The notes: generated from the sequence alone by a model not told the origin. A stretch of DNA of 64,000 nucleotides from Minisyncoccota bacterium (GCA_041663025.1 JBAZRE010000001.1:5912-69911), one strand, 5' to 3'; counted from the stretch's first letter, positions 1 to 54,048 are shown. Made by a program: numbers and translations.

Positions 1-228
1 CATCGCAACATTGATGATGCCGTAGGCACCGAAGATGATCACGAGACCGATGATGCCCCAGAACATCGCCTTGTGACCCTCCTCGCGCTTCGTTGCGTCC
101 CCTGCATGCGCGACAAACTCAAACACGCCCCAGAGGAAGACGACAAAGGCACCCGCGGAGAGAAGCAGAATAATCGGATTGATAATCTGCGTGACGACCT
201 TGTCGAGAAATGAGTTGAGAACGGGCAT
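1..228 (-). CDS. pilin-like small membrane protein, paralog 1 of tandem array; partial, with the C-terminus beyond the window start
   Basis: Reverse-strand ATG at 226-228 translates to MPVLNSFLDKVVTQIINPIILLLSAGAFVVFLWGVFEF...EGHKAMFWGIIGLVIIFGAYGI. This is the same two-helix motif (…FLWG…EG….WGIIG…) as the downstream paralogs. It is not in the ORF track because it runs off the window edge. Confidence 0.5.
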   Translation of the reverse strand, partial: MPVLNSFLDKVVTQIINPIILLLSAGAFVVFLWGVFEFVAHAGDATKREEGHKAMFWGIIGLVIIFGAYGIINVAM

Positions 229-232
229 TTAA

Positions 233-610
233 CTAGCCACCGACTCGGACACCAGCTGAAGGAGTGCCGCCAGCGGGACCGCTGCCACTACCGAAACCAA
301 CTGTGCCGGTTAGGATGTTCACCAAGCCCCAAACTGAAACCATCACAAAGAAACCAATAAGACCCCAAAGCATAAGATTCTTGCCCTTCTCCTTTACATC
401 AGCAGAATTAGCACCGAGGATGAAGGTCTGGAATGCGCCCCAGAGGAAGACGATGAAGGCGACGGCGAAGAGAACCGGGACGAAGACGTTGTTGATGGTG
501 TTGATAATAAACGAGCCAACGTCTGCGATGTTATTGATAGCGGCGAGAGAGACGAGCGGCACGGCGAATGCAGCGAGCGATATTGCGGTGAGGGTAAGGG
601 CTTTTTTCAT
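233..610 (-). CDS. VirB2/TrbC-like (T4SS-pilin-like) small membrane protein, paralog 2
   Basis: 125 aa with an N-terminal signal peptide (MKKALTLTAISLAAFAVPLVSLA). It then has two hydrophobic helices separated by a short charged loop (VPVLFAVAFIVFLWGAF…EKGKNLMLWGLIGFFVMVSVWGLV). The motif is shared with the neighbouring ORFs. Confidence 0.55.
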   Translation of the reverse strand: MKKALTLTAISLAAFAVPLVSLAAINNIADVGSFIINTINNVFVPVLFAVAFIVFLWGAFQTFILGANSADVKEKGKNLMLWGLIGFFVMVSVWGLVNILTGTVGFGSGSGPAGGTPSAGVRVGG

Positions 611-690
611 AAATTAAGTAATGATTAACAGGATAATTGTAGCTTTTCTGTAGACGTGGTCAATGCGGCTGTGGGCGGTGTGTGGATAGT

Positions 691-1875
691 CTAATTTTCT
701 ACCGGAGTATTCGAACAATCGCAACCTGTTGATGGATCATATGTGCACCCATCATTTATCATTTTACAATCAAGTTCCGCTTGTGAGGCTCCGCTATCGT
801 TGCTGCTGCTGGTATCAGTGATACATGTTCCTGGAGTACCTGAACACACGAGGCCGAGGCTGGTATTACATATGTCGTATTGTCCGGTACCACAAGTGCT
901 TCCAAGCGAACCGTCATTGACTGTGTAGCCTGTGAGACATGTACATAGCGACCAATCGTATTTATTGCCAGCTATTGATTCACAATCTATTATCTCGTCT
1001 CCTGTTGCCGCACATGTGTCAGTGCCACTTCCACTACTGCCAGTATTGGTACTGCCTGTTCTGGCACCACACCTAGAAACTCCAGAACTGGTAGCTCCGC
1101 ATGCTAGAGAGGGATCACAGTAATCATCATTGCAACACAGGGCTCCTTCTGTACCATCTCCACTGGCGCAATCAGCGCCACTTCCACTTCCACTTCCAGT
1201 ATCGCCACCACCGGTATTGGTACTGTCGTCGCAGTTACCAAAGATGGTACATGAGGTTACGCCTGGAGCGCAGACACTTTTAAAGAACGTGCCGCAAGTG
1301 ATAGTGCCACCACCTCCGCCACCAGGAACTACATAAACTTTTTGTGCGTTGCTATATGCGGTAGTTGCCGAGATGCATTGGCTGCTTGAACTGCCATATC
1401 GCGTACACGTAGTATTCTTGCTGGTATATAGATTATTCATCTGCGTCTGGGCTGCAGAGGTTCCACCGGGTCTCTGAGCACAGATTCCGTCAAAAAGTGA
1501 CCCGCCACTGCAATATCCGCTTGCACATTCAGGATGCGAAGTGCATGCTCCGCCGTTTGCCGTCAAGTCACCACCGCTGCTACCACCGATCGTCGGGAAT
1601 GGAGGCGCGTTCGTCGCGGAATTTAGGCCGAGTGTGCCCATGAAGATCTGCACAATGCCCCAGACTGAGAAGAGGAGCACAAAGCCGATGATGCCGTAGA
1701 GAGTGAAGACACGTCCTTCTGCACGTTTCTTTTCGTCGTCTGCTCCCTTGATGAAATAATTATAGATACCCCATAGGAATACGATGAACGCGACAGAAAT
1801 CAACGTTGGCACAAGAATGCCGTTGATAATGCCGGTTATGCTATTGGCATAGCCTTGGATGTAGGATGCGTCCAT
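691..1875 (-). CDS. pilin-like N-terminal domain fused to a long Cys/Gly/Ser/Thr-rich extracellular extension
   Basis: 394 aa. Residues 1-90 carry the same two-helix motif (VPTLISVAFIVFLWGIYNYF…EGRVFTLYGIIGFVLLFSVWGIV). Residues about 90-394 are low-complexity with about 38 Cys spaced irregularly, including GSGSGSG runs, suggesting a disulfide-rich surface domain. Confidence 0.5.
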   Translation of the reverse strand: MDASYIQGYANSITGIINGILVPTLISVAFIVFLWGIYNYFIKGADDEKKRAEGRVFTLYGIIGFVLLFSVWGIVQIFMGTLGLNSATNAPPFPTIGGSSGGDLTANGGACTSHPECASGYCSGGSLFDGICAQRPGGTSAAQTQMNNLYTSKNTTCTRYGSSSSQCISATTAYSNAQKVYVVPGGGGGGTITCGTFFKSVCAPGVTSCTIFGNCDDSTNTGGGDTGSGSGSGADCASGDGTEGALCCNDDYCDPSLACGATSSGVSRCGARTGSTNTGSSGSGTDTCAATGDEIIDCESIAGNKYDWSLCTCLTGYTVNDGSLGSTCGTGQYDICNTSLGLVCSGTPGTCITDTSSSNDSGASQAELDCKMINDGCTYDPSTGCDCSNTPVEN

Positions 1876-1886
1876 AGAGGTGATGA

Positions 1887-2282
1887 TTAATACGACGTCG
1901 GGAGCGGCGGTGCGTAGTATCCCGAGAGACCGAATGTGTTGGCGACGACATTCACTAGCCCCCAGATAGAGATCATGATGGCGAATGCGACGATGCCCCA
2001 GAGGACAAGGTGATGGCCCTCCGCAACCTTCGTGGTGTCGCCATAAGAGAAGATGTATGCCTTCGCGATGCCGTAGAGGAAGACGATGAAGGCGATGGCG
2101 AAGAGTACCGGCACCAAGACCGAATTGATAATGTTGAGAATCATCCCACCGAGCCAGCAGATGTAGACATCACAGCCATCGATGGAGGAGTAGCTCAAAT
2201 AGCCGCTAGCTGCAAAAGCGAACGACGGAGCAAGAAGTGTTGTAAGAATAAGTGCGGCACGGGTTATTTTTTTCATTTTCAT
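1887..2282 (-). CDS. VirB2/TrbC-like small membrane protein, paralog 4
   Basis: 131 aa with a signal peptide (…LLAPSFAFAAS). It has the conserved core IINSVLVPVLFAIAFIVFLYG…EGHHLVLWGIVAFAIMISIWGLV. Confidence 0.55.
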   Translation of the reverse strand: MKMKKITRAALILTTLLAPSFAFAASGYLSYSSIDGCDVYICWLGGMILNIINSVLVPVLFAIAFIVFLYGIAKAYIFSYGDTTKVAEGHHLVLWGIVAFAIMISIWGLVNVVANTFGLSGYYAPPLPTSY

Positions 2283-2302
2283 ATAGTTAAGAGTATGACA
2301 CG

Positions 2303-2587
2303 TTATGCGCCTGGTGCGATACCGAGCGTGGATAACAATAGATTCACGAATCCCCAGACCGAGAAGAACACCACCATCCCGAGAATGCCCCAGAAGATGA
2401 AATCTCGGCCCTCTTTCAACTTCGCTTCATCGCCATTATTACTGAAGAAGAAATACTTCACCACACCCCAGATGAAAACTGCGAAGATAAACGCGCCGAT
2501 GAGCGGTACGACAATTGTGTTGATGATGCCGATAATGCCGGTCGTGCCACTGCCGACAAATTGAGCGAAGGTCATACTAGCCGCCAA
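2303..2587 (-). CDS. VirB2/TrbC-like small membrane protein, paralog 5
   Basis: 94 aa with no signal peptide. Core is IINTIVVPLIGAFIFAVFIWG…EGRDFIFWGILGMVVFFSVWGFV. The probable start is the internal Met of MTFAQF. Confidence 0.5.
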   Translation of the reverse strand: MAASMTFAQFVGSGTTGIIGIINTIVVPLIGAFIFAVFIWGVVKYFFFSNNGDEAKLKEGRDFIFWGILGMVVFFSVWGFVNLLLSTLGIAPGA

Positions 2588-3014
2588 GCGCCTGCACAGT
2601 CGCGGTGATACTTATTTGTATCGCCTGCGCTCCGAGCAATATCAAAGCACCAATAACTGTCCAGAGGAGCGCCTTGTGTGCCTCTTCTAGTTTCCCAGGA
2701 TTACCCTGCGCCTTGACATACAAGAAGCCGATATACACCAACATCAAGACAACGGCGATAGCGCCGATACGCACGACGAATTTCAGAATGCTATTGAGGA
2801 AGGCCATTAAGCAATCGCCATTACTGCTACTGCAGTCAATACCTTTGAGCGGGTTGATGAGGGTGACTTTTTGTCCTGAAGCGCCAATTATCGGTGTGGG
2901 CGTTACAGGCTTACCCGTCACTGGTGTTATCTGCGCGAGCGCCGTAGGCGCGAGCGTGAAGAAGACAAAAATGGCAATTAGAGCAAGACGCATACTATTG
3001 TTGCAAGAGTGCAC
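2577..3014 (-). CDS. TrbC/VirB2-type pilin-like protein, paralog 6 and the most canonical copy
   Basis: 145 aa. Signal peptide MRLALIAIFVFFTLAPTALA is followed by a mature region ending IAVVLMLVYIGFLYVKAQGNPGKLEEAHKALLWTVIGALILLGAQAI. This helix, small polar loop, helix layout is typical of conjugative VirB2/TrbC pilins. Confidence 0.55.
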   Translation of the reverse strand: MHSCNNSMRLALIAIFVFFTLAPTALAQITPVTGKPVTPTPIIGASGQKVTLINPLKGIDCSSSNGDCLMAFLNSILKFVVRIGAIAVVLMLVYIGFLYVKAQGNPGKLEEAHKALLWTVIGALILLGAQAIQISITATVQALGG

Positions 3015-39979: not shown

Positions 39980-40056
39980 GGGAATTTCTACTGTTCAGTA
40001 ATAATATTGTCAGTATAGCCCGCTATCTTCCCTGCATATGCCTTTTCCCCACCTTT

Positions 40057-40118
40057 CCGTAAGGTGACACCTTACGGTTTTTGGTATTTCCCCAGCTCCG
40101 TAAGGTGACACCTTACGG
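40057..40118. repeat. two tandem REP-like hairpins (family 1) upstream of the RAYT gene
   Basis: CCGTAAGGTGACACCTTACGG at 40057-40077 and again at 40098-40118. Confidence 0.85.
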
Positions 40119-40155
40119 TTTCCCTCTAGGGCATGCTAGTATTAGCTCATTACAT

Positions 40156-40827
40156 ATGACAAAGAGAGATGCCCCGTTTGCTGTCGGCGAGTGGTACCAC
40201 TGCTACAACCGTGGTATTGAAAAGCGTACCGTGTTTGAAGATACCAGGGATTATCATCGCTTTCTCGAACTCCTTTACTTGGCAAATGATGAGTTCCCTC
40301 TCCGGCGTGAAGATATCGGCACATATAAATTTGAAGAAATATTAAAGATTCCCCGCGGCAAGAAATTGGTCGCCATTGGAGCGTTCTGCCTGATGCCTAA
40401 CCACTTCCATCTGGTGCTGAAGGAGATCTCGGAGGGAGGTATCACCGCATTTATGCGAAAAATCGGAACATCCTATACTTTGTATTTTAATGCACGGCAT
40501 GAGAGGACTGGAAACCTCTTCCTAAAGCCATTCCGATCCCTTCATGTATCTAACGACCGTTACTTCCAACACCTCATTAACTATGTTCACTGCAATCCAG
40601 CAGCTCTCTATGAACCTGGGTGGAAAACTAACCAGGTTGTGGACCCTCAATTCTTGGGAGAACAGATTGCAGCTTATCCATACTCAAGTCTTGGTGCCCA
40701 TACTGGTGCACACCCATCGACCAGACCCATCCTGGATGCAGAAGTATTCTCCATAACGCATACTGTTCGGATACAAAAGATGCTGCAAGAAGCACGACAG
40801 TATTACGCTGATTCTAATCTTCCGTAA
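40156..40827 (+). CDS. IS200/IS605-family Y1 (HUH) transposase-like protein, REP-associated (RAYT-like)
   Basis: ATG at 40156 (MTKRDAPF…) is preferred. The N-terminal part of the longer track ORF overlaps the REP hairpins. WYHCYNRG…, the HUH motif CLMPNHFHLVL, and the catalytic Tyr region YVHCNPAA. Confidence 0.75.
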   Translation: MTKRDAPFAVGEWYHCYNRGIEKRTVFEDTRDYHRFLELLYLANDEFPLRREDIGTYKFEEILKIPRGKKLVAIGAFCLMPNHFHLVLKEISEGGITAFMRKIGTSYTLYFNARHERTGNLFLKPFRSLHVSNDRYFQHLINYVHCNPAALYEPGWKTNQVVDPQFLGEQIAAYPYSSLGAHTGAHPSTRPILDAEVFSITHTVRIQKMLQEARQYYADSNLP

Positions 40828-40874
40828 GGCCGTAAGGTGTCACTTTACGTCAGGCGTAAAGTGACACCTTACGG
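40822..40874. repeat. compound REP-like hairpin (family 1) downstream of the RAYT gene
   Basis: CCGTAAGG + CCGTAAGGTGTCACTTTACG-tcaggc-CGTAAAGTGACACCTTACGG (a 20-bp stem). Confidence 0.8.
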
Positions 40875-40884
40875 AATATAGATG

Positions 40885-44207: not shown

Positions 44208-44330
44208 AACTCATGTATTCTACTTGTTTTTCGAGCACTTGACAAATTGACCTTGTGGGTGTATACTGGTAGCAGGTAGTAAGTTCTGTAAATACAGTAA
44301 ATAACCCATTGAAAAAATAGGAGGTGCGTT

Positions 44331-44633
44331 ATGAAGAGGTTTTTAGTTTGTTTTTTGGTGTTAGTGACGCTCGCTGCGCCGATGTCGGCTTCAGCACGCG
44401 GTGGATTCGGAGGAAGCGGTGAGGGTATCTGTTTGGGACTTGGACTCGGGGCTTTATTCGGCCTCGCGATGTCCCAGCCGCAACCAGTCTATGTGGCGCC
44501 GGTGCGACAACCAGCAATGTGCCTGACCCTGGTTCCCGTGTGGGGAATGCGATGGGATCCATACTCAGGTCGGTACGTTCAGGTACAGGTTGGAGAACGG
44601 TACGTCCGGATGTCCTGCCCTCCCGTCTACTAA
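44331..44633 (+). CDS. small secreted hypothetical protein
   Basis: 100 aa. SD AGGAGGTG, signal peptide MKRFLVCFLVLVTLAAPMSASA, and a terminator hairpin at 44659-44680. Confidence 0.45.
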   Translation: MKRFLVCFLVLVTLAAPMSASARGGFGGSGEGICLGLGLGALFGLAMSQPQPVYVAPVRQPAMCLTLVPVWGMRWDPYSGRYVQVQVGERYVRMSCPPVY

Positions 44634-44658
44634 CGGAACGCCAGCATAACAGTCTTAG

Positions 44659-44680
44659 CCACTTGGAAGTTTTCAAGTGG
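44659..44680. terminator. bidirectional terminator hairpin
   Basis: CCACTTGgaagttttCAAGTGG with T-runs on both sides. Confidence 0.55.
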
Positions 44681-44798
44681 CTATTCTTTTATTCGCCCGC
44701 GGAGTTTTTCGGCACTGAGGATTAAACCCTGAGCAAGGACTACCCTTGCTCAAATAAAAACAGAGGGATTGGCACACTGCCAATCCCTTCCTGCAATC

Positions 44799-44957
44799 CT
44801 AGTTACGGGCGAATCCGTATGAGAGGAATTCCTGTGACGACCTCCGGGCCATTTGAGCAATTGCGGCAAGCTCCTTTGCTTGAGCATTGCTTACTTGTGC
44901 CTTCAGGACTTTTCCTGTCTTCACATCGCGCAGGTTGTCAAAAACTATTGTCTTCAC
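44799..44957 (-). CDS. small protein (52 aa) on an inserted segment at the gdh 3' end
   Basis: Not in the ORF track because it starts with GTG and is shorter than 60 aa. A very strong SD (GGAGGAAAGGAGGTGG) sits 5 nt before GTG, giving (M)KTIVFDNLRDVKTGKVLKAQVSNAQAKELAAIAQMARRSSQEFLSYGFARN*. It is followed on its strand by the hairpin GGATTGGCA-GTG-TGCCAATCC plus a T-run. Confidence 0.35.
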   Translation of the reverse strand: MKTIVFDNLRDVKTGKVLKAQVSNAQAKELAAIAQMARRSSQEFLSYGFARN

Positions 44958-44993
44958 TTTTACCACCTCCTTTCCTCCCTTACTATATCACAA

Positions 44994-46224
44994 TTATTTA
45001 ATCCGGCCGCGGAGTTTTTCGGCGGAGAGAATACGGTTGACGGCGAGGATATAGGCCGCTTGGCGCAGGGTGACACTTCCCTTCTTCTCTTGGAATACTT
45101 CGTACATCCGCTGCCAATTGTCCTTCATCTTTTTTTCTAGCAAGCTGCGCAAGTAATCCTCCTCGAGAATCTGCCCAGTGCGATTCTGCGCCCATTCAAA
45201 ATAGCTTGCGATGACGCCGCCAGAGTTTGCGAGGATATCCGGGATCACCACTTTCTTGTTTGCTTCTAGAATGCCATCGGCATCATAATCAACTGGGCCA
45301 TTGGCTAATTCAATAATGTACTTTGCTTGAATGTTTCCTGCATTTGCTTTAGTTACCTGATTGCTTAAGGCCGCTAACACCAGAATGTCAGCTGGCAACT
45401 CAAGCAGCTCGGCATTGGTGACTTTTTCTCCTGCCTCATATTCGCAGACCTGCCGACCTTTTCTCTTACATTCGATAAGCCCAGGAATATTCAGACCTTT
45501 TTTATCGTAGATACCGCCCTTACTGTCAGAGACCGCGACGATCTTAAAGCCGTCTTGATGTAGCTTCTCTGCCATATAGAGCCCAGCGTTGCCAAACCCT
45601 TGAATAATGACACTTAGGTTCTTTTTGCCCGCCAAAAATGTCTCCACCATCTTCTTCGCTATTAAATAACCTCCCTGCGCTGTCGCGTCGCCGCGCATCG
45701 CGATACCGCCAAGCTCAACCGGCTTGCCGGTGATCATGCCTGGTTCATGATGCCCAACCTGCTTTTCAAATTCATCAAGCATCCACGACATGATCTGACT
45801 ATCGGTATAGACATCAGGAGCTGGGATATCTTTGTCCTGCCCAAGATAGGTATGAAATGCCTGAATATATTTGCGACTCACCTCCTCAAGCTCCGCCTTA
45901 TCAGCATCTTTTGGATTAAAACAAACACCTCCCTTCGCACCACCATATGGGATGTCTGCCAAAGAATTCTTCAATGCCATCCAGAAAGCGAGAGACTTCA
46001 CCTCGTCTTCGTCTACTTCAGGATGGAAGCGAATACCGCCCTTGCCTGGACCAAGAGCTCTATTGTAGACAATCCGCCACGCCGGATAGCGATTTCCCTT
46101 AATACTCAGCTCGGTGTAGTTAACCTGCACAGGGTCAAGCAACACCGCCATGTCGGTGTTGCTGATACTGGCTATCTTCTGGATATCATTCAAACGCTTC
46201 AGATTATCTTCAGTGATGCTCATT
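44994..46224 (-). CDS. gdhA: NAD(P)-dependent glutamate dehydrogenase
   Basis: Start at MSITEDNLKRL… (about 46224), giving about 410 aa. The track ORF extends about 107 aa further N-terminally through a terminator hairpin and promoter-like TATATACT, which is rejected. Catalytic GGAKGG and Rossmann GFGNAG motifs are present. Confidence 0.85.
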
Positions 46225-46620
46225 TCTTTGTTATTACGTATCAGTAAACTATTTCTTACAGAGTATATACCAAAAATTAAGAAGGGCGCGGATCCTCTGG
46301 TCCGCGCCCAATAAAAGTGATTCTTATTTAACTTGAGTAGACTACCTTTGGCCAGTGAACAATCTGTTTGGTTATAACCTGCTTTTCTGGATATGTCGGC
46401 TTTTGTTTTACCGATATTTCTCCCAAATAACAGATTATTCGATATTGTTTCCCGCAACTCTTGTTCTCGCACTGAACGTATGTAGCTTCTCGATGCTTGA
46501 CCGACTTTTTGCGAAAACCAATTACCACAATCTCCTCGCCACATCTACACTTCGGTATAGCATTGTGTGCTTCCTTGTACCCAACCTCCTTCCGCCACAG
46601 ACTATATCACAGCCAAAATG

Positions 46621-52292: not shown

Positions 52293-52306
52293 GCTTGAAA
52301 ACAAGA

Positions 52307-52346
52307 AAACAAGGGTGCCCCTTGCAGCAAGGGGCACCCTTGTTTT
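52307..52346. repeat. GC-rich REP-like hairpin (family 2) between recG and 52346..53182
   Basis: AAAACAAGGGTGCCCCTTG-cagca-AGGGGCACCCTTGTTTT (stem of at least 15 bp). It may also act as a bidirectional terminator. Confidence 0.8.
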
Positions 52347-53182
52347 TACTCCGCCGTTTCTTCTTTCCCCTTATCTCTCTCCGCAACAAACTTTTTTACT
52401 TCTTCATAACTCATCTGCTTGGGCCAACGAAGATCTCCTTCTTCATTATAAATGGGCAACAGCAATTCAGGTTTGTCTTTGTATGCCTCTATTTGAGCAT
52501 CAAGAGTTCCGTAATCACCAACAATCCCGCGGAAATAGCGTGGCGCTAAGCGATGACTAAGGGCAAAACCATCTTCGCTAGTTACGATGGTTGCACCTTC
52601 CTCATTCAATTGATCATCATGAAATCCATGCAAATTATCCATCGCACGATAGGTCCGACTCTTGCCTGGAAATAATTCCGAAGCTCTTTTGCTTTTGCCC
52701 ATCTCAACCCTTTCAGAAAACGATGATAGATCGAAAATTATAAAGACATTTGGATTGCGACGACTCATCCAGTGAGAGTCTTTTATTGATTGGGGTTGTT
52801 CATATTTATATGCGTCCATCCTCCCGAGAATATTGAAGAAAACATTCCCGCCCGATGACTCTCCATCCCTCAAATTTTTTGACCAATTTTCTTTGGATAT
52901 TTCTGTCTTTCCCCAAGTAAAATCTGGACATCCCAGCAATCCTTCACGATATATTTTCGCTAGAACTTCTTTTTTTAGACTATGTTCACCCCCGCCACCA
53001 GCATCTCTGGTTACGTTAATTTGAGTAAAAGCTGTTCCCTTTTTATTGATGTCCTGCACTTTCTCCATTATCTTCTCAATCGTTTCTGGTGAGAGATCTT
53101 TTTCTAGCTCTTCGAGACTCTTTTCTTCTGGCACACTCTCGACCTTTGGCGCTTCTGGCTTTTGCGGTCCTTCTAGGCTCAT
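52346..53182 (-). CDS. hypothetical protein bracketed by family-2 REP hairpins
   Basis: 278 aa, acidic N-terminus (…PEEKSLEELEKDLSPETIEKIMEK…). No recognisable motifs. Confidence 0.45.
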   Translation of the reverse strand: MSLEGPQKPEAPKVESVPEEKSLEELEKDLSPETIEKIMEKVQDINKKGTAFTQINVTRDAGGGGEHSLKKEVLAKIYREGLLGCPDFTWGKTEISKENWSKNLRDGESSGGNVFFNILGRMDAYKYEQPQSIKDSHWMSRRNPNVFIIFDLSSFSERVEMGKSKRASELFPGKSRTYRAMDNLHGFHDDQLNEEGATIVTSEDGFALSHRLAPRYFRGIVGDYGTLDAQIEAYKDKPELLLPIYNEEGDLRWPKQMSYEEVKKFVAERDKGKEETAE

Positions 53183-53222
53183 GGGAAGAATAATATCATC
53201 AAATCAACCGTTGCAAGCATTG

Positions 53223-53269
53223 CAAGGGTGCCCCTTGTATCTTGCACAAGCTTACAAGGGGCACCCTTG
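53223..53269. repeat. REP-like hairpin (family 2) upstream of the second RAYT gene
   Basis: CAAGGGTGCCCCTTG – 17 nt – CAAGGGGCACCCTTG. Confidence 0.8.
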
Positions 53270-53293
53270 TTAGGTTACGATAGTAAATAAGTT

Positions 53294-53923
53294 ATGAGAA
53301 AACGCGATTATAAAGAATTCGCTCCCGACACGTCCTATCACATCTATAACCGTGGAAACGGTAAAATGGACATTTTTCGTGATGAACAAGATTACTTGAA
53401 CTTTCTCAAGCGCCTTCGCCTCTTGCTCGGTAAAACAAGGGGCACCCTTGCATCGTCAATTCGAGTTACGCCATTTGAATCAGACGACTTCTCGCTTATT
53501 GCCTACTGTCTAATGCCAAATCACTTCCACTTGCAGGTAGAACAATGCGGAGAAGTGTCATTAAGTAGCCTCTTGCTTAAGGTGTGTACGAGTTATTCTA
53601 TGTATTTCAATCGTAAGTATGACCATGTCGGGCACGTGTTCCAAGATCAATTTAAAGCCATTCCGGTTGAGTCAGATAATCAAATGGCCGCATTGTCGGC
53701 ATACATACACCAAAATCCAAAAGTGGCAGGGTTAGTAGACACTCTCGACGCGTGGGTTTATAGCAGTTATCCGGATTATATTGGACTTCGGCAGGGCGAT
53801 CTTATTGATCCCGAATCAGTACTCGGTCAATTTCCAAATAAAGAAGCCTACAAAAGTTTCGTGGACGAGCAATACGAAGAAATTCTTGAACGAAAAAATA
53901 TCAGAGAACTCCTTCTTGATTAA
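53294..53923 (+). CDS. IS200/IS605-family Y1 (HUH) transposase-like protein, REP-associated (RAYT-like), second copy
   Basis: 209 aa. YHIYNRGNGKMDIF…, the HUH motif CLMPNHFHLQV, and the Tyr region YIHQNP. A family-2 REP half-site AAAACAAGGGGCACCCTTG lies in frame at 53433-53451 and encodes KTRGTLA. Confidence 0.75.
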   Translation: MRKRDYKEFAPDTSYHIYNRGNGKMDIFRDEQDYLNFLKRLRLLLGKTRGTLASSIRVTPFESDDFSLIAYCLMPNHFHLQVEQCGEVSLSSLLLKVCTSYSMYFNRKYDHVGHVFQDQFKAIPVESDNQMAALSAYIHQNPKVAGLVDTLDAWVYSSYPDYIGLRQGDLIDPESVLGQFPNKEAYKSFVDEQYEEILERKNIRELLLD

Positions 53924-53924
53924 C

Positions 53925-53969
53925 TGCAAGGGGCACCCTTGTAATTTAATTACAAGGGTGCCCCTTGCG
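53925..53969. repeat. REP-like hairpin (family 2) downstream of the RAYT gene
   Basis: CTGCAAGGGGCACCCTTG-taatttaat-TACAAGGGTGCCCCTTG. Confidence 0.8.
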
Positions 53970-53973
53970 ACTT

Positions 53974-54048
53974 GTCCGCCCCCTTGGACTCGAACCAAGA
54001 ACCGCAGAGGTATAAGCTCTGTGCTCTAACCAATTGAGCTAGGGGCGG
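53974..54048 (-). tRNA. tRNA-Ile with genomically encoded UAU anticodon
   Basis: Reverse complement CCGCCCCTAGCTCAATTGGTTAGAGCACAGAGCTTATACCTCTGCGGTTCTTGGTTCGAGTCCAAGGGGGCGGA. U8 is present, the D-arm is Ile/Met-like, the anticodon loop is CTTATAC, and the T-loop is TTCGAGT. Confidence 0.7.

Follow-up and report, generated by a model that had tools for sequence, protein, structure and literature searches.

The subject of this analysis is the 3' end of gdh, a Glu/Leu/Phe/Val dehydrogenase gene, in an uncultivated member of the Patescibacteria of the Paceibacterota/Kaiserbacteria type (Minisyncoccota bacterium, GCA_041663025.1, JBAZRE010000001.1:5912-69911). The whole stretch analyzed, 64,000 nucleotides (64 kb), is referred to here as the window, and positions are counted from its first letter. 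A small gene lies downstream of gdh, bracketed by two versions of the last gdh codons: copy B, which ends the gene, and copy A, which lies farther downstream and is noncoding. A first-pass annotation had taken these for a target sequence duplicated by an insertion. Comparison with related loci suggests that the gdh 3' end was instead probably displaced by one-sided homologous recombination with DNA of a diverged relative, in a manner like homology-facilitated illegitimate recombination (HFIR). In the following, WIN denotes the window genome and L-numbers denote related loci, in which the query gene (mostly gdh) is set on the plus strand. The features are listed below in order of position.

44331-44633, plus strand: convergent open reading frame (ORF) for a 100-aa secreted protein; resident backbone, also present in L166 (orf99) and L002
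44656-44683, plus strand: terminator hairpin of the convergent 100-aa ORF, ancestral neighbor of the gdh stop; in L166, its orthologue TAGCCACTTG...AAGTGGCTA lies right beside the gdh stop
44683-44722, minus strand: copy A, displaced noncoding relic of the resident gdh tail; reads ILSAEKLRGRIKE, stop TAG at 44681-44683
44723-44730, no strand: putative right (illegitimate) junction, where imported DNA meets resident DNA; minus-strand sequence AGGGTTTA; limit of the similarity to L166 and to copy B
44731-44751, no strand: solitary hairpin resembling a repetitive extragenic palindrome (REP), GAGCAAGG-N5-CCTTGCTC; probably part of the imported tract
44754-44788, minus strand: predicted intrinsic terminator of the small gene; hairpin 44764-44788 followed by a T-run (terminator scan)
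44799-44957, minus strand: orphan small gene, 52 aa; GTG start, Shine-Dalgarno (SD) sequence GGAGGTG at 44964-44970
44981-44992, minus strand: spacer TGTGATATAGT, directly after the gdh stop; probably the native gdh flank of the donor type
44993-45032, minus strand: copy B, functional gdh tail; reads ILSAEKLRGRIK, stop TAA at 44994-44996; probably imported with the small gene
44994-46223, minus strand: gdh, 409 aa; Pfam ELFV_dehydrog and ELFV_dehydrog_N

RESULTS

Two gdh tails with silent differences

Copies A and B align in register and without gaps at a distance of 310 nt, and 32/40 nt are identical. The two near-identical tail segments reported around the small gene are therefore real, with the roughly 35 bp given in the first-pass annotation extending to 40 nt. 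Common to both is an exact 17-nt core, CCGCGGAGTTTTTCGGC (44697-44713 and 45007-45023), which is the sole secondary match of segment 44640-45040 in the window (blastn-short, E = 0.001). Copy A is without a start codon and sits behind a terminator. The whole structure, including the insert, is 100% identical in L164 (an ENA assembly with a 61-kb contig; 6.3 kb compared) and in L165 (a Logan assembly of another run; 3.1 kb compared), and the three assemblies that agree at this locus come from different samples. Because these two independent assemblies match WIN throughout, an assembly artifact, for which a check had been advised, is excluded. The repeat is short, which could suggest chance similarity or a chimera; however, its core lies inside 40 nt of in-register similarity encoding the conserved GDH C terminus, and it recurs in assemblies from different samples, so that such an origin has a practically negligible probability.

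In the 12 codons that A and B share, 7/36 nt differ (T/C, T/A, C/G, C/T, C/G, G/A, and T/A), and 7/7 of these differences are synonymous, including those between the Ser codons TCC and AGT. In simulations, random substitutions kept the peptide with p ~1e-5 for seven changes, p ~0.003 for four, and p ~0.015 for three. The position of the stop differs as well: A ends in K-E-stop and B in K-stop. Both forms occur in relatives, with K-X-stop in L004-L007 (KS*, KA*, KD*, and KG*) and K-stop in L002 and L166. Because the divergence is silent only, it is very unlikely that A is a neutral copy made at the moment of insertion. Judged by their codons, A and B are evidently two different gdh alleles, each of which would once have been functional, and not a duplicated target. 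Likewise, the 17-nt core, found at 16/17 nt in L166 and at 15/17 nt in L006, evidently reflects clade-wide conservation of the AEKLRG codons and does not mark a crossover site.

The empty site and the resident tail

The closest relative is L166/L167 (gdh, 89% amino acid identity; ribonucleotide reductase [RNR] gene, 81.6% nucleotide identity; gdh 5' part, 81 to 85% nucleotide identity). In L166, gdh ends with ...ATACTCATTGCCGAAAAACTCCGTGGGCGAATAAAGTAA, directly followed by TAGCCACTTGGGGGTCGGACCCCTAAGTGGCTA. Downstream of this single gdh end, L166/L167 have the hairpin, convergent genes including a homologue of the 100-aa ORF, DUF192, RNR, a gene resembling those for REP-associated tyrosine transposases (RAYT), and a tetratricopeptide repeat (TPR) gene. 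The empty site that had been predicted for relatives, a single gdh end abutting the orthologous hairpin, is thus present in L166/L167. The resident order in WIN was the same, with gdh (...ILSAEKLRGRIK[E]*), the terminator hairpin, the convergent secreted-protein gene, DUF192, and RNR. The first-pass annotation had described a bidirectional terminator at 44659-44680; a hairpin does lie there (44656-44683), but since its T-run is on the plus strand only, it acts as the terminator of the convergent 100-aa ORF.

Copy A matches the L166 gdh end at 32/36 nt and copy B at 27/36 nt; taken together with the hairpin at 44656-44683, A shows a contiguous identity of 90% to L166 over 49 nt. Because A, unlike B, fits the L166 end plus terminator, A is evidently the resident ancestral tail, now 310 nt from its gene, and B probably came with the insert. 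Relatives carrying both copies, which had been named as evidence for an ancient structure, were looked for, and a second tail was found in 0/157 related gdh loci. Compared with the ancestral arrangement, WIN does hold about 310 nt of extra DNA with the small gene, in agreement with the roughly 300-bp insertion first proposed, but the bracketing repeats are no target duplication, given the silent-only differences and the closeness of A to L166.

These results bear directly on a true target-site duplication, by which a transposition-like insertion would have copied ~40 nt from the end of gdh, with divergence of the two copies thereafter. Direct repeats around an insert that is absent from the closest relative are what such an event predicts. 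A copy A evolving neutrally is also expected, yet 7/7 differences keep the peptide (p ~1e-5, or 0.003 to 0.016 if three to four of the changes fell in A), A, which differs from B by 20%, is nearer to the L166 tail than to B and far nearer to that tail than B is, and the stops of A and B are at different positions. Moreover, segment 44300-45500 holds no terminal inverted repeats; the unit has no transposase, its only ORF being the 52-aa orphan, and no second copy in the window or related loci; the gdh 3' half appears foreign (see below); and the window offers no other case. We consider a target-site duplication highly improbable. Other candidates were rejected on simpler grounds: a diversity-generating retroelement (no reverse transcriptase among the neighbors and mismatches that are not A specific), an integron-like element (no attC and no integrase), and a tandem duplication (intervening DNA without a local homologue).

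gdh is a mosaic

The reading of A and B as two alleles raises the matter of the gene body upstream of B. In neighbor-joining trees, WIN and L166 are sisters with 97% bootstrap support for codons 1 to 225 and with 1% for codons 226 to 409. In the latter part, WIN gdh joins L002 (66%) or falls outside L002 plus L166 (31%). A three-taxon max-chi2 analysis places a breakpoint near nt 705 (permutation p = 0.016), and the nucleotide identity between WIN and L166 drops from 81 to 85% in the 5' part to ~75% in the 3' part, where similarity between L166 and L002 is, if anything, higher. A sliding-window breakpoint search against distant relatives was uninformative, and the signal appeared once L166 was included. 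Since the mosaic signal goes together with the match of copy A to the L166 tail, the simplest reading is that the 5' ~225 codons of WIN gdh are L166-like and that the 3' part would have been imported from another lineage.

The small gene and its donor-type flank

The small gene begins 37 nt downstream of the gdh stop. The strong SD sequence noted at the outset belongs to a real gene, which has its own terminator and shows purifying selection relative to its L001 orthologue (ratio of nonsynonymous to synonymous substitution rates [dN/dS], 0.16). The terminator stem is kept in that orthologue through a compensatory change (GGGACTGGC/GCCAGTCCC versus GGGATTGGC/GCCAATCCC). Since no promoter-like site was seen between gdh and the small gene, the latter is probably read through from gdh and cotranscribed with it up to its own terminator. 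Searches of 5.8 billion plus 1.84 billion proteins returned one clear homologue of the 52-aa protein, P0002 (76% identity), which is encoded on L001. A profile search of the 1.84 billion representatives added only a weak match, the 56-aa P0004 (E = 5e-4), whose neighbors are unannotated small ORFs, and a repeat protein. Pfam gave sub-threshold noise only (KELAA and PurS), PHROG gave no match, and an exact-sequence look-up of P0001 and of a 55-aa product found no record. A scan of GTDB species genomes gave no further copies of the gene, and Rfam detected tRNA only. The AlphaFold2 model (mean predicted local distance difference test [pLDDT] score, 82) predicts a beta-hairpin and a long helix, for which no fold match was found in the PDB.

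L001 provides a view of the donor-type arrangement. There gdh has been lost, and a frameshifted relic of its last ~8 codons plus a TGTGATAT spacer lies immediately upstream of the small gene, which has 78% nucleotide identity to that of WIN. The spacer motif TGTGATATAG, which also precedes the L001 small gene, is the very end of gdh in L003/L168 (..RIKGVI*). Because the L001 relic and spacer line up collinearly with copy B plus spacer of WIN, the left junction (gdh tail, spacer, SD sequence, and small gene) is evidently shared and older than the WIN event. The right junctions differ, since L001 has no second gdh tail downstream and no REP. At L001 6190-6265, both gdh and the upstream Zn-ribbon ORF are wholly deleted, and tRNA-Ser is followed within 5 nt by the relic and then by the small gene.

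Possibly, a circular cassette of ~310 nt could have produced the same picture through a single crossover, either Campbell type or site specific, in the 17-nt core of the gdh tail, leaving hybrid repeats on both sides. Besides the small gene with its terminator, the cassette would have contained the REP hairpin and a surrogate gdh tail of 40 nt. The sharp edges of the repeat around an exact 17-nt core are in line with such an origin, as is the supply of a replacement gene end, reminiscent of integrative elements aimed at gene 3' ends, and in L001 the module has a version of the post-gdh spacer on each side, TGTGATATGATAG and TTGTCGTGATACAG. However, there is no integrase or recombinase in or adjoining the unit, whose neighbors are gdh, the secreted 100-aa ORF, and DUF192, and the core is a conserved AEKLRG coding stretch in relatives. 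The model further predicts that the upstream arm of B should be resident-like, whereas it is the arm of A that is nearer L166 (8/10 versus 6/10 and 14/16 versus 11/16, on very few sites), and the 3' half of gdh as a whole is unlike L166. Finally, L001 is without a second gdh tail, and no further copies were found in the window or in 169 loci. A circular cassette is therefore unlikely.

An exact 11-mer, ACTATATCACA (TGTGATATAGT on the minus strand), occurs at 44981-44991 and at 46601-46611 and brackets the block of Zn-ribbon ORF plus gdh, with one copy just past the gdh stop and the other just past the 3' end of tRNA-Ser. Paralogy of the SD region of the small gene with the tRNA-Ser flank was rejected, as the tRNA-side GGAAGGAGGT is coding sequence of the conserved Zn-ribbon ORF. 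By comparison with L003 and L006, both copies seem native where they are; their identity could be due to chance, or they could have been a substrate for gdh deletion.

The REP-like hairpin

The hairpin at 44731-44751 is unique in the window, with 0 occurrences expected by chance. Its 23-nt core, TGAGCAAGGGTAGTCCTTGCTCA, recurs with 100% identity in L007/L084, where a Y1_Tnp gene directly following gdh stands between two REPs; the match is to the first REP, and the second differs in its loop. The family was otherwise found only in L007/L084. No cognate Y1_Tnp gene was seen in the window, where the two Y1_Tnp genes use other REP families. The hairpin looks like a passenger, a putative marker of foreign DNA from a lineage harboring that REP family.

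A more active role can be imagined, in which a REP/RAYT-linked event created the structure: the REP, 7 nt from copy A, would mark the place where DNA broke or was cleaved by a Y1 (HUH) transposase, the end of the inserted DNA would have been made or captured there, and the small gene would be REP-associated cargo. This would be in keeping with the identity of the core to the REP bracketing Y1_Tnp after gdh in L007/L084, with the presence in the window of two other Y1_Tnp genes that have their own REPs, and with a junction directly at the REP flank. Yet this is the single REP of its family in the window, with no cognate RAYT seen; insertions of the IS200/IS605 type occur without duplications and carry no host gene ends; and the L001 module has no REP. 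Such an event also leaves the synonymous-only divergence and the gdh mosaic unexplained, and we regard it as very unlikely. There is a still slimmer chance that the 310-nt unit is a miniature nonautonomous cassette, with the gdh tail as its homing sequence and the REP as a handle for a Y1 (RAYT-type) enzyme acting in trans. If so, it would move between Patescibacteria genomes into the gdh end, and L001 and WIN would represent independent insertions.

The two RAYT-like genes of the window (IS200-like Y1 transposases, PF01797), at 40081-40827 and 53294-53923, both on the plus strand, are each bracketed by their own REP-like hairpins. Family CCGTAAGGTGACACCTTACGG has four copies, at 40056, 40097, 40829, and 40853 (40056-40877), and family GCAAGGGTGCCCCTTGC has four, at 52306, 53219, 53923, and 53949 (52306-53974). 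L166/L167 have conserved the gene at 40081-40827, together with its REPs, downstream of RNR. The Cas2-like paralogs with long direct repeats to which the gdh junction had initially been likened were not found in the window; the only genes found there to be bracketed by long repeats are these two, which may be what was meant but which represent another kind of phenomenon than the gdh junction.

Gene turnover downstream of gdh

The gene order around gdh is conserved among relatives: htpX, tRNA-Ser(GGA), a small Zn-ribbon ORF, gdh, DUF192, and class II RNR. The distance between gdh and DUF192 is ~20 to 30 nt in L004, L006/L083, L082, and L085. Elsewhere the gap is occupied by an NT5C gene associated with a REP hairpin (L005/L008), by a RAYT-like Y1_Tnp gene with REP hairpins on both sides (L007/L084), by an unrelated ORF (L003/L168), or by convergent secreted-protein genes (L002, L166/L167, and WIN, where the gap is 44208-44993 and also holds the 52-aa orphan gene). 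With at least six different occupants among relatives, the gap is evidently a hotspot of gene turnover. The unrelated ORFs in it range from 80 to 175 aa, and the convergent secreted genes number one or two per gap.

The small secreted proteins or lipoproteins convergent to gdh evolve fast (WIN 44331-44633, plus; L166 6287-6792, minus; L002 1776-2009, minus). Promoter, SD sequence, and signal-peptide region are conserved between genomes, but the mature parts diverge strongly; two genes of this kind occur in L166. Between tRNA-Ser and gdh, WIN has a small Cys-rich, zinc-ribbon-like ORF (46328-46590, minus) without a Pfam match. It is conserved in L002 and L006, which have two repeats where WIN keeps one, and its frame continues into the 516-aa "extended gdh" ORF reported by some gene callers (e.g., on L165). 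At a distance from the locus, 127-3014 (minus) encodes five tandem paralogs resembling type IV secretion system pilins (PF18895/TrbC), which have a conserved 72-nt stretch in common.

DISCUSSION

We propose that linear DNA from another lineage of the Paceibacterota/Kaiserbacteria type entered an ancestor of the window genome. It would have carried its own gdh 3' part, the TGTGATATAGT spacer, the 52-aa gene with its terminator, and the REP hairpin. The left end of this DNA would have recombined homologously inside gdh, between about codon 225 and codon 397, and the right end may have been attached by an illegitimate join at 44723-44730, which is 36 nt before the resident stop. At these positions homology to every relative runs out, as does the similarity to the L007 REP flank (CTCAG(T)GGTT). 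The outcome is that gdh now ends with copy B, the putative donor tail, and that the last 13 resident codons (A) stay behind as a noncoding relic in front of the old terminator.

Several points weigh against this displacement of the gdh 3' end. The comparisons of copy A rest on 36 to 49 nt only. The mosaic signal could partly stem from recombination in the L166 or L002 lineage, which are unusually similar to each other at nt 931 to 1100, and between all relatives synonymous sites are close to saturated, so that breakpoints are blurred. In addition, the donor lineage, whose sequence beyond the right junction would show any microhomology (typically a few nucleotides in HFIR), is unsampled, and the length of the imported tract is uncertain. 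Natural competence would be a candidate route for the uptake of linear DNA, as it has been shown in Saccharibacteria, a group of Patescibacteria (PMC10633639).

The first-pass annotation had suggested from the locus an unusual insertion mechanism with long target duplications operating in this genome. The window has 149 open frames of at least 100 aa, and gdh alone has a downstream copy of its own C terminus. Since 0/148 other frames and 0/157 gdh loci show the same, we regard the displacement as a one-off event and not as a genome-wide mode of insertion; it looks like ordinary recombination rather than a new mechanism. Its value is illustrative, not conceptual. The locus offers a base-resolved footprint of gene gain, in which donor and resident tails stand side by side and both the empty site and the donor-type arrangement occur in relatives. 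It would show how orphan small genes can hitchhike on a housekeeping gene into the compact intergenic space of reduced genomes, and it is consistent with DNA uptake and recombination between lineages that differ at ~20% of nucleotides. It also carries a caution, in that imperfect long "target duplications" at gene ends need a test for synonymous-only divergence before transposition is invoked.

How does the locus compare with known systems? REPs are reportedly associated with IS200-like Y1 transposases, in work ascribed to Nunvar (2010), Bertels and Rainey (2011), and Ton-Hoang (2012). The insert in WIN resembles these REP/RAYT systems in holding one REP-like hairpin of a family that brackets Y1_Tnp in a relative, and it differs in that the hairpin stands on its own, in one copy, and that no transposase cognate to it was seen in the window. 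Phages and integrative and conjugative elements (ICEs) that use att sites in the 3' ends of tRNA or protein genes likewise leave direct repeats with an identical core and keep the gene intact through a replacement tail. In contrast, WIN has no recombinase, its unit measures only 310 nt, its core is explained by codon conservation, and the body of the upstream gene appears foreign too.

Closer similarities exist with C-terminal displacement, which generates "orphan 3' ends" in Rhs, contact-dependent inhibition (CDI), and type VI secretion system (T6SS) effector-immunity loci (Kirchberger et al. 2017, PMC5361080; Jackson et al. 2009, as cited in PMC5361080). There, as proposed for WIN, an allele that enters by way of a conserved 5' anchor supplies a different 3' end and a new downstream gene, and the resident 3' end is shifted downstream as a relic. 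Here, however, the gene is a housekeeping dehydrogenase and not a polymorphic toxin, a single event is seen and not an array, the displaced piece comprises only 13 codons that encode the same peptide as their replacement, and the passenger is a 52-aa orphan without a known role as toxin or immunity protein.

HFIR has been described in Streptococcus pneumoniae, Acinetobacter baylyi, and Pseudomonas stutzeri (review, PMC3240628). The process in WIN is deduced from comparative genomics of an uncultivated lineage. Moreover, the usual outcome of HFIR is a deletion, whereas in WIN the illegitimate end would lie upstream of the point homologous to the donor end, so that a 40-nt overlap was kept as a duplicate. 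Two features of an HFIR footprint are present: a homologous anchor is indicated by the lineage switch within gdh (97% to 1% bootstrap support; max-chi2 p = 0.016), and the displaced resident end, copy A, is orthologous to the intact end of the insert-free relative L166. As in HFIR, WIN would combine one homologous anchor, here gdh, with one putative illegitimate junction over a tract of hundreds of nucleotides, yielding both insertion and replacement.

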